Positions 30,025 to 31,214 of a DNA stretch of 64,000 nucleotides are shown here, one piece after another. This DNA is from a bacterium (GTDB lineage Bacteria > UBA8248), in NCBI GenBank assembly GCA_965203325.1, contig OZ241875.1, forward strand, positions 2,048,001-2,112,000, given 5' to 3'. The notes beneath the pieces are model-generated. The model saw only the letters and a list, made by a program, of their open reading frames with translations. It was not told the DNA's origin and ran no database searches. The translations under genes and the position numbers were made by a program. The first letter of the stretch is position 1. Every line of letters starts with the position of its first letter.

Positions 30025-30227
30025 GTCCGCTAATTGACGTTATCGGAAAGTTAAACACCTCTCACGGCCATGTCAAGCGCAATTCCGGGGTCCCCGGAGG
30101 GGTTTCGGGCGCCGTTTTGCGTCTTTTTTCGCTCATGTTTCGCTCATTTGCGGCCCGAATGCGCCCCAAATCGGGTTTTTCGGCGGAAAACGGGGTTTCT
30201 GGGGGCCGATAACGTCAATTATCGGAC
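30025..30227. promoter_or_regulatory. Pair of inverted lox-like sites enclosing a leftward sigma70-like promoter
   Basis: 30025-30046 gtccgctaa-ttgacg-ttatcgg and 30206-30227 ccgataa-cgtcaa-ttatcggac (21/22 inverted match); minus-strand TTGACA(30076-30071)-17 nt-TAACTT(30053-30048). Confidence 0.65.
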
Positions 30228-30341
30228 TTCAGAAACCCGCCGTTTCGCCGGTATTAGCCTGCGAAACGGCTTTTTTTTGTGGAAATTCCCCGTCGTCGTC
30301 TATACTTGGTAATCGAGGAGGCCCTGAAGCGGCCTCAGGGA

Positions 30342-31214
30342 ATGGAAACGGCCGCCGACCTGGCGAAGGCGTCGATGTCTGAGAACACGTGGCGGGCGTA
30401 CGAGGCGGCGCTCAGGGGGTTCGAGCGCTCGGGAAACCCCGAGACCGACGCCGGGATAGCGGCGTACCTGGGGGATCTCTACGAGGGGGGGCACTCGGCG
30501 GCCGTGGCCGCGATGGCGGTCGCGGCGCTTCGCTTCCGGGCGAAGCTGAACGACCGGCCCTCCCCGGTGGGGGCGGCCTCGGAGCGGGTGCTGGCCGGCT
30601 TCAGGCGCCTGGCCGCAGAGCGCGGCCGGGGCCAGGTGGTGGGGGTGCGCTGGGAGCAGGCGGACCGGGCGGCGGCGCTGGCCGAGGGGACGGGGACCCT
30701 GGCCGGTCTGCGCGACGCGGCGATCGTTGCGGTGGCGAGCGACGCCCTGCTCCGGGTGTCGGAGGTCGAGGCGCTCGACATCGCCGACGTGGACCTGGAC
30801 GAGCAGACGGTGCTGATCCGCCGCTCGAAGACGGACCAGGAGGCCGAGGGCGTCGTGCAGTTTCTGGGCGAGCCGACGGTGGCGCGCGTCGGGGCCTGGC
30901 TGGCGCGCGCGGGTCTCGAGGAGGGAGCGCTCTTCCGGGGCGTGTACAAGGGGGGACGGCTTCGGCCCGGGCGCCTGACGGAGAGGAGCATCCGGAGCAT
31001 CATCGCGCGGTGGGGGAAGGCCGCGGGCGTGGAGGGGCGCGTGAGCGGGCACAGCCTGCGCGTGGGGGGCGCGCAGAGCCTGGCCACGGCGGGGGCGTCC
31101 CTGGTCGAGATGCAGATTGCCGGGCGCTGGCAGTCGCCGGTCATGCCGGGGCGCTACGCGCAGGGCCAGCTCGCGAAACAGGGCGCGATGGCGAGGCTGC
31201 GCTACGGCCTGTGA
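30342..31214 (+). CDS. Cre-like tyrosine recombinase
   Basis: RDAA...LLRVSE, RRSKTDQ, SGHSLRVG and GRW.S..MP.RY catalytic R-K-H-R-W-Y set. Confidence 0.92.
   Translation: METAADLAKASMSENTWRAYEAALRGFERSGNPETDAGIAAYLGDLYEGGHSAAVAAMAVAALRFRAKLNDRPSPVGAASERVLAGFRRLAAERGRGQVVGVRWEQADRAAALAEGTGTLAGLRDAAIVAVASDALLRVSEVEALDIADVDLDEQTVLIRRSKTDQEAEGVVQFLGEPTVARVGAWLARAGLEEGALFRGVYKGGRLRPGRLTERSIRSIIARWGKAAGVEGRVSGHSLRVGGAQSLATAGASLVEMQIAGRWQSPVMPGRYAQGQLAKQGAMARLRYGL

Follow-up and report, generated by a model that had tools for sequence, protein, structure and literature searches.

A probable Cre/lox-type invertible promoter switch, one of 16 copies, beside surface-protein genes of a UBA8248 bacterium

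Promoter-inversion phase variation is well known in gut and pathogenic bacteria. The locus described here belongs to a bacterium of the lineage UBA8248 (assembly GCA_965203325.1) and lies within a 64,000-nt stretch of contig OZ241875.1 (positions 2,048,001 to 2,112,000; hereafter the window, in whose numbering coordinates are given unless another record is named), between a large adhesin gene and a gene for a Cre-like tyrosine recombinase. The locus is likely one copy of a modular Cre/lox-type invertible promoter switch (inverton) for surface-protein genes. In the proposed mechanism two inverted 34-bp lox-like sites bracket a 159-bp segment with a putative outward sigma-70-type promoter at one end, and the adjacent recombinase, or any of five intact paralogs acting in trans, would exchange strands within the 6-bp cores of the sites and so flip the segment. 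In the ON state, which is the orientation of the window, transcription from the promoter would cross the distal site and a conserved leader before reaching the adhesin gene. In the OFF state it would run into a hairpin and T-run behind the proximal site, with the recombinase gene on a promoter of its own.

A first-pass annotation of the sequence had proposed an invertible promoter switch, driven by a Cre-like recombinase and currently facing the adhesin. At the comparative level this is borne out by both orientations among 16 paralogs, a flipped syntenic ortholog, breakpoints within the sites, co-varying cores and an enzyme with Cre as best solved relative and a full catalytic set. The elements of the switch lie at the positions given there, and it is not a single one but one of 16 in the genome. 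Promoter firing, termination at the hairpin and a measurable switching rate in living populations are what we infer from the sequence.

Both orientations among sixteen loci

The genome searched (G000) consists of one contig of 4.39 Mb. A degenerate site pattern with at most one mismatch has 32 matches per strand, against 3 for a reversed control pattern, and a slightly looser pattern has 33, which make up 16 pairs, every pair exactly 179 bp start-to-start, and one lone match. The 159-bp interiors are ~90% identical across the 16 copies. A BLAST search of the genome with the locus shows that flanks are common to the loci too, over ~60-80 nt towards the adhesin and ~140 nt towards the recombinase.

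Once all flanks are turned the same way, the interior is window-like at three of the 16 loci (the window, 3869513 and 2672535) and inverted at the other 13, as determined by BLAST and a script check. The sister species (G012) has 17 switches, two of them window-like, 14 inverted and one at a contig end. The switch in L118 of G012 and locus 2672535 of G000 share synteny over many kb on both sides; their flanks are colinear and the stretch between the sites is aligned in reverse. Three other syntenic pairs (L116/1308421, L117/1411862 and L110/2585527) are colinear throughout and in the same state. In a tree built from the 31 modules the window-like state turns up at separate positions, with at least four changes counted by eye on a short alignment, support not being assessed. 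The state of the window is also seen in other data, contigs of public runs X1 and X2 bridging the interior and the proximal flank in that orientation with 0 differences.

In either state the outer half-sites remain part of the flanks, the proximal one always reading CCGATAA and the distal one CCGCTAA, CCGTTAA or CCGGTAA, and inner half-sites travel with the interior. The breakpoints thus lie inside the sites. Such breakpoints are a prediction of strand exchange in the core, and their position argues against a transposon-like element inserted either way. Taken together, these comparisons are strong evidence that site-specific inversion has occurred repeatedly, i.e. for phase variation at multiple loci. 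Most switches are OFF in the genotype that was assembled, and this suggests that the cell surface undergoes combinatorial phase variation.

The genes controlled

At all 16 loci a signal-peptide gene reads away from the distal site, its start ~40-255 nt from the site. Nine of these genes encode large proteins with fn3, Cadherin-like, Calx-beta or He_PIG domains, and the other seven encode lipoproteins (M(M)FKDKYI...LAGCGGG) without a Pfam match. One switch-controlled lipoprotein (L136, G000:C1:2672958-2675630) has over residues 11-58 a weak match to NCBIfam NF058595 ('lipo-invert putative C-terminal anchoring domain'), at 23.4 bits and below the cut-off of 37.

The gene controlled by the window switch (25751..29920, minus strand) encodes an adhesin of 1389 aa with a signal peptide, fn3, Cadherin-like and two Calx-beta domains, according to its translation and Pfam. 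It had been labelled an FN3/Calx-beta autotransporter; the two domain names stand by Pfam, and for the third there is no Pfam match to Autotransporter PF03797 at E <= 0.01. A PDB sequence search with the C-terminal 499 aa gave chance-level matches only, none of them to an autotransporter. Residues 1000-1389 have an ESM Atlas features score of 0.96 versus Autotransporter beta-domain clusters, with 29 of 30 matches in Autotransporter clusters, to be taken as a lead only; by this model-based lead the autotransporter label is plausible.

Lox-type sites and crossover cores

The distal lox-like site (30020..30053; CTGGTGTCCGCTAA-TTGACG-TTATCGGAAAGTTA, variable 6-bp core at 30034-30039) and the proximal one (30199..30232; CTGGGGGCCGATAA-CGTCAA-TTATCGGACTTCAG, core at 30213-30218, both arms of the full type) enclose the invertible segment (30040..30212), which comprises two inner arms and the 159-bp body, ~90% conserved in the alignment of 16 copies; none of the three features is assigned a strand. 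The first-pass annotation had described two inverted 22-bp sites, 21 of 22 positions identical, with the same asymmetric spacer. These dyads are real, the left at 30025-30046 (core CCGCTAA-TTGACG-TTATCGG, 30027-30046) and the right at 30206-30227 (core CCGATAA-CGTCAA-TTATCGG, 30206-30225); in reverse complement they differ by a single base (C/A, in the outer arm) and have the asymmetric spacer TTGACG in common. The length of 22 bp is too short, each site being ~34 bp by half-site alignment. A repeat search returns the inverted repeat at 27 nt, 89% complementary, with 159 nt between the arms, and a second dyad around the right site with 32-nt arms, 75% complementary. The extra dyad arms noted earlier at the right site are therefore present, and they are there because the proximal site has two full arms in the window orientation.

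When 64 half-sites are aligned, three of the four classes read CTGG-N3-CCG-N-TAA around the 6-bp core, from which arms of ~14 nt and a 34-bp site follow. The exception is the class at the interior's promoter end, which retains only TTTC(C/T)GATAA because the -10 box sits on it; likewise the inner arm of the distal site is degenerate because the -10 box overlaps it. The variable 6 bp with the invariant A and T on either side may correspond to the loxP 8-bp spacer with its 6-bp stagger. The arms end in G-A-T-A beside the core, and in this they resemble the G(T)-A-T(G)-A motif near the spacer of active Cre-type sites that is noted in PMC10250229.

Eight kinds of core occur in G000 (TTGACG, TTGCCG, TTGATG, TTACTG, TTGTCG, TTGCTG, TTGCCA and TTGCTA), and G012 adds further ones, e.g. 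TCGTTA, TCGCTA, TCACTA, TTATCG and TTGTTA. Within a pair the two cores are identical in 15 of 16 cases in G000 and in 15 of 15 in G012 (30 of 31 pairs). Tyrosine recombinases require both partners to have the same sequence in the overlap region. For Cre-type enzymes the same requirement is set out in PMC10250229. Recombination across a single mismatch would leave a heteroduplex resolved by replication, so concerted core change is expected in pairs still recombining or selected to be able to do so. Pair-specific cores that insulate loci from one another were considered and rejected as a rule, the cores not being locus-unique: in G000 TTGACG occurs at four loci, TTGCCG in three pairs and at one site of the single pair with unequal cores, TTGATG at two loci and TTGCTG at two.

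Promoter, A-tracts and leader

Within the ~160 bp between the sites the first reading had recognised TTGACA-17-TAACTT aimed at the adhesin, and this element is found at 30076..30048 of the minus strand. As a predicted sigma-70-type outward promoter (30048..30076, minus strand) it comprises a -35 box TTGACA (30076..30071), 17 nt and a -10 box TAACTT (30053..30048). It is directed from the left end of the enclosed segment at the adhesin open reading frame (ORF), and its predicted start falls within the distal site. TTGACA adjoins one of the sites in all 31 modules of the two genomes and in all 18 taken from contig records, eight of these from the sister-species assembly and ten from further records, and it is kept even in diverged modules with little else in common (L022, L025, L027, L040 and L042). 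The whole layout, TTGACA-16/17-TAnnnT adjoining one site, is present in the same 31 of 31 and 18 of 18 modules, the predicted outward promoter at one end being the only element of the segment conserved across all of them. Nowhere does the interior vary more than at the -10 position (TTAACT/TAACTT, TAAATT, TATATT, TATATC, TATGTT, TACGTT and TGTACT), and given this variation promoter strength may differ among loci.

Upstream of the -35 box are A-tracts with an ~11-nt period (30103..30148, minus strand; GAGCGAAACAT / GAGCGAAAAAA / GACGCAAAACG ...). Their centres are 9-12.5 nt apart, and the shorter module variants measure 168 instead of 179 bp, i.e. one 11-nt unit less. The tracts are likely to be intrinsically bent DNA, and such bending would make it easier for sites separated by only 160 bp to come together; an additional stimulating effect on the promoter is conceivable. 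The sole terminator-like match of the promoter/terminator scan is a weak stem inside the segment.

From the switch to the adhesin start codon extends a leader, or 5' untranslated region (29921..30019, minus strand; alignment and BLAST). The ~55-80 nt nearest the site are conserved at all 16 loci, before both gene classes (alignment; BLAST of 29965/29969-30046). Leader RNA folds at -46.5 kcal/mol (z -2.35), with a hairpin that has no U-run after it and may be a conserved leader structure. The long hairpin before the adhesin occupies 29947-30017 of the minus strand; lipoprotein-class loci have a different stem sequence at this position, around the conserved centre ttccgcgagaggcggattcctgcggtatgcg. 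An Rfam scan of 29600-30500 returned a chance-level miRNA match only (E 0.54).

Between the switch and the recombinase gene

A GC-rich, intrinsic-terminator-like hairpin with T8 adjoins the proximal site on its outer side (30239..30278, plus strand), whose fold of -26.5 kcal/mol (z -5.66) was equalled in 0 of 200 shuffles. It is outside the loop limit of the promoter/terminator scan and was folded directly. A T-run of at least seven is present at 15 of the 16 loci, and a hairpin of -17 kcal/mol or better abuts the T-run at 11. A putative promoter-like element for the recombinase follows at 30279..30306 (plus strand): GTGGAA (TTGGAA in most copies), 16 nt and TATACT. The element is conserved at the DNA level in paralogs and in other metagenome-assembled genomes (MAGs), including a CTGGAA variant incompatible with a start codon.

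The simplest reading is that the hairpin and T-run form an insulator, followed by the recombinase's own promoter. If so, the flipped promoter would be silenced and would not drive the recombinase. Feedback on the recombinase after flipping had been suggested; with the conserved hairpin and T7-8, and then TTGGAA/GTGGAA-16-TATACT, standing before the gene, this suggestion is not supported. Terminator read-through is possible, and the feedback idea is weakened, not disproved.

The recombinase

The recombinase gene (30342..31214, plus strand) encodes 290 aa from its ATG and matches Pfam Phage_integrase at 6e-18. The ATG at 30342 is 114 nt past 30227, in agreement with the ~115 bp beyond the right site estimated before. 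The ORF is open from GTG 30279, and this codon was rejected as the N-terminus: the stretch is conserved as DNA, L031 has CTG there, and distant homologues are similar only from 'AADL'. The start is accordingly placed at ATG 30342. In one otherwise full-length paralog (G000:C1:1826311-1827183) ATA stands in place of the ATG of the window copy.

Its designation as Cre-like holds, Cre being the best solved relative. Of 19 PDB sequences matched, the top 17 represent Cre or Tre, a derivative of Cre (E 1.4e-12 to 4.6e-10), with XerA next at 2.6e-5. The alignment with Cre is of low identity and covers residues 91-307 only. Within it the motifs LLRVSE, RRSKTD, GHSLRVG, GRW and GRY align with Cre motifs and provide the full R-K-H-R-W-Y set (R159, K184, H258, R261, W284 and Y293 in P0001 numbering). 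The genome holds six full-length recombinase copies of 80-100% identity, and more N-terminal fragments beside other switches; all six catalytic residues, the Cre-type Trp included, are present in six of six full-length paralogs. Judged by the catalytic set and the relationship to Cre, the recombinase looks active. No NCBIfam model reaches its cut-off for this protein: the FimB/FimE-type invertase models NF007371 and NF007370 reach 21.7 and 17.8 bits where the cut-offs stand at 222 and 221, and the integron integrase model TIGR02249 scores 16.1 bits against 265.

The same internal deletion of ~660-730 bp, which joins window 30518 to ~31181-31246, is found in seven recombinase genes of G000 (1029512, 1262090, 1995932, 2556925, 3371526, 3869513 and 4230847), and the neighbouring HTH_17 ORF is intact. 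Contigs from public runs have loose ends and a 'skips 675' joint at the deletion junction.

Weighing the switch against other explanations

Several observations weigh against an inverting switch as described. Most switches face the recombinase side in both genomes, which would mean a strong bias or many copies no longer flipped. Public-run evidence comes from assembled contigs (Logan), in pieces of ~80-370 nt, of four (X1-X4) of 21 listed runs, among which there is no RNA run. No mixed orientation is seen at the window locus in the contigs of X1 and X2, which drop minority variants. A single 'opposite strands' joint (30005 to 30213; run X3, two contigs) is not assignable to the window locus because its flank is common to adhesin-class loci. 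The recombinase gene is internally deleted in seven of the 16 modules and missing from three; such modules would depend on enzymes made elsewhere. The pair G000:C1:3371526-3371724 has a mismatched core, TTGCCG versus TTGCCA, the sole mismatch, and this switch may be locked. No promoter was called in 29700-30500 by the consensus scan, which missed the window copy because its -10 box matches only three of six positions. Finally, the hairpin is weaker or differently folded at four of the 16 loci, and the T-run is missing at one (1713266).

Part of this would also be expected had inversion been a past event, the copies having spread by duplication and become essentially fixed, with the adhesin transcribed constitutively from the promoter. 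Most copies do lie in one orientation (13/16 and 14/16), seven recombinase genes are internally deleted, and mixed orientation is absent from the X1 and X2 contigs at the window locus. Such fixation is nevertheless unlikely. Six recombinase genes are intact with all catalytic residues; cores match in 30 of 31 pairs yet vary among loci, which calls for continuing exchange or selection; and one ortholog has flipped since the species split. The X1 and X2 contigs, from which minority variants are dropped, cannot show absence. Less probable still is that a mobile element uses the sites for its integration, excision or dimer resolution, in the way P1 uses loxP, their inverted pairing being incidental. 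Inversion of the intervening DNA is the only outcome open to inverted sites with an asymmetric core; the spacing is fixed at 179 bp in 16 of 16 pairs and encloses a conserved promoter, and the differences among loci are inversions, not deletions. What speaks for such a role is the spread of the module to many places and genomes, together with distant homologues (Binatia, Terriglobia, Longimicrobiales and Poribacteria records) in which one palindromic lox-like site lies upstream and a partner is missing within 450 nt. The first-pass annotation had entertained a resolution or operator site as the alternative, and this fits only those distant homologues with a single lox-like site.

A 199-bp element of the miniature inverted-repeat transposable element (MITE) kind, inserted in either orientation, would likewise be a short element in many copies, bounded by terminal inverted repeats around an interior that is conserved. 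Its likelihood is very small, given that ~60-80 nt of distal and ~60-140 nt of proximal flank are co-conserved with polarity kept, that outer half-sites differ between distal and proximal ends and do not move with the interior, and that the syntenic ortholog differs in the interior only. Just as improbable is a function of the dyads as operators, for the HTH_17 protein or for autoregulation of the recombinase, without DNA rearrangement: each site is palindromic and close to the recombinase promoter region, and the HTH_17 ORF is next door, but the two orientations and the matching cores would be left unexplained, and modules outside the genus lack the HTH_17 ORF and keep paired sites.

Occurrence beyond this genome

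Within the genus, site matches occur in five of 12 other genomes searched and are absent from seven, some of which are 99-100% complete; the switch system is therefore accessory. Recombinase homologues of 43-78% identity come from Nitrospinota, Candidatus Entotheonella, Tectimicrobiota, Binatia, Dehalococcoidia, Latescibacterota, Poribacteria, Terriglobia, Longimicrobiales and others, these names being record titles, some of them of short contigs for which binning may be wrong. A metagenome scan with the recombinase gave a best match of 73% identity and none from the same species. The runs that hold parts of the stretch are labelled sponge, coral or marine metagenomes, or bear coded organism names.

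Whether homologous recombinases carry the same paired sites had been put forward as a check. Paired inverted sites with matching cores are found upstream at 18 of 80 homologue loci, eight in the sister-species assembly and ten in other MAG records, several of which are labelled as other phyla, and L041 is one more. Among 13 more distant homologues scanned with the repeat search, 12 lack an inverted partner within 450 nt, and a single palindromic lox-like site is present at two of the 12 (L032 and L061). Distal genes were examined at 15 paired-site loci, and at the eight of these outside the sister-species assembly their products are lipoproteins, one of them with a TAT signal, and, from two Latescibacteria, a protein whose N-terminus is SusC/carboxypeptidase-regulatory-like, the last a label given by eye. 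Cre has a single lox site beside its gene. The switch probably arose from such a single-site arrangement beside a recombinase.

A broader scenario is put forward tentatively, as possible rather than probable. A self-contained Cre/lox-type phase-variation cassette, consisting of leader, lox-like site, bent promoter segment, second lox-like site, terminator and recombinase gene with its own promoter, may have moved horizontally among several phyla of sponge and coral bacteria. In this genus its 16-17 copies would give every cell a stochastic mix of eukaryote-like adhesins and lipoproteins, mostly OFF, as a bet-hedging coat versus host phagocytes or phages, and cores would evolve in concert since the pairs keep recombining.

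In G012 a 3.7-kb block with a lipoprotein gene and a switch, and no recombinase (L115:7077-10823), is absent from G000:C1:928695-928728. The block is bounded by ~22-nt direct repeats (GAGATGAKGGAACCC...), not by lox-like sites, and its borders give no evidence of a recombinase moving the cassette.

Neighbouring genes and repeats

Beyond the recombinase gene lies a convergent ORF of 239 aa (31303..32022, minus strand) with a C-terminal HTH_17 (excisionase-type) domain by Pfam. Ten genome copies match its residues 1-228 or 1-230 of 239, and in other records it occurs only in those of the sister species. It was considered as a universal partner of the system and rejected as such, not being found beside modules outside the genus.

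The window switch sits in a block (20000-32300) of higher G+C, 0.66-0.75 versus a genome value of ~0.60. Three stretches of the block, namely 20113-22896, 24027-25684 and the 3' part of the adhesin gene (25500-27880), recur at ~10 places in the genome with 88-94% identity, some of them not beside a switch. ORFs of 565 aa, 366 aa (with zinc-ribbon hints) and 173 aa in the block have no family match. A 1.5-kb repeat, probably an insertion sequence, has ~17 copies in the genome at ~90% identity and lies near some switch loci (in G012, L111:13163-14787 and L117:3983-7345; in G000, e.g. C1:1429662-1431291). Further off, in a stretch of lower G+C, a 703-aa ORF with a SIR2_2 domain (15350-17461, plus strand; 6e-19) may be a defence gene.

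Significance and comparison with known systems

Adhesins with FN3, cadherin-like and Calx-beta domains, together with lipoproteins, have long been discussed as mediators of symbiont-host contact. Were the switches active, the surface of these uncultured symbionts would be heterogeneous and programmable, which would bear on the reading of genomes and transcriptomes and on host recognition in such symbioses. The module is also a natural flip switch whose many core variants apparently function with enzymes closely related to each other; the variants make up a small collection of candidate lox-type sites, and the module is a test case for spacer co-evolution. Literature searches brought up no paper on invertons or invertible promoters in sponge symbionts, and a wider one on Cre-like invertases none for this system.

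The fimS element of Escherichia coli type 1 fimbriae is ~314 bp long with 9-bp repeats and is served by FimB/FimE, small FimB/E-type invertases, and by host bending proteins. Like it, the window system has a short invertible segment with a putative outward promoter for a surface-adhesion gene, inverted repeats, tyrosine recombinases nearby and, by the present reading, ON/OFF phase variation. Unlike it, the window system has 34-bp lox-type sites, a 159-bp segment with phased A-tracts, 16 loci and an enzyme that scores far below the Fim-type models.

In Bacteroides fragilis the recombinases are Mpi and Tsr. Multi-locus promoter inversion is described in reports on B. fragilis (PMC4747536) and on RecV of Clostridioides difficile (PMC9286219, PMC7446863). 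The likeness lies in many surface or signalling loci with related repeats, one or a few recombinases acting in trans and ON/OFF combinations; SusC-like targets, known from the gut systems, appear here at L040 and L042. The differences are another recombinase lineage and site architecture, and the fact that most switches here carry their own recombinase gene, intact or deleted. Unlike those of the gut systems, the hosts here are uncultured bacteria, and the records of relatives and the runs are labelled sponge, coral or marine. In the ipuS element of uropathogenic E. coli an invertible promoter for the autotransporter UpaE is reportedly flipped by tyrosine recombinases (PMC6083910). The ON/OFF control predicted here for an adhesin that may be of autotransporter type is similar; unlike the window system, ipuS is a single locus with Fim-type recombinases and not a repeated lox-like cassette.

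With Cre/loxP of phage P1, and with Cre-type recombinases that have palindromic target sites next to them (PMC10250229), the system has in common a 34-bp site, arms of ~13-14 bp, a site beside the recombinase gene, matching spacers and the rule that inverted sites give inversion. The natural site of Cre is single and serves plasmid maintenance, whereas here two inverted sites enclose a promoter. What sets the present system apart from known invertons is thus a Cre-type rather than Fim-type enzyme, 34-bp lox-type sites, a compact cassette with its own putative insulator, and 16-17 loci before eukaryote-like adhesins and lipoproteins. In this arrangement the window switch is a natural counterpart of engineered Cre/lox flip switches.

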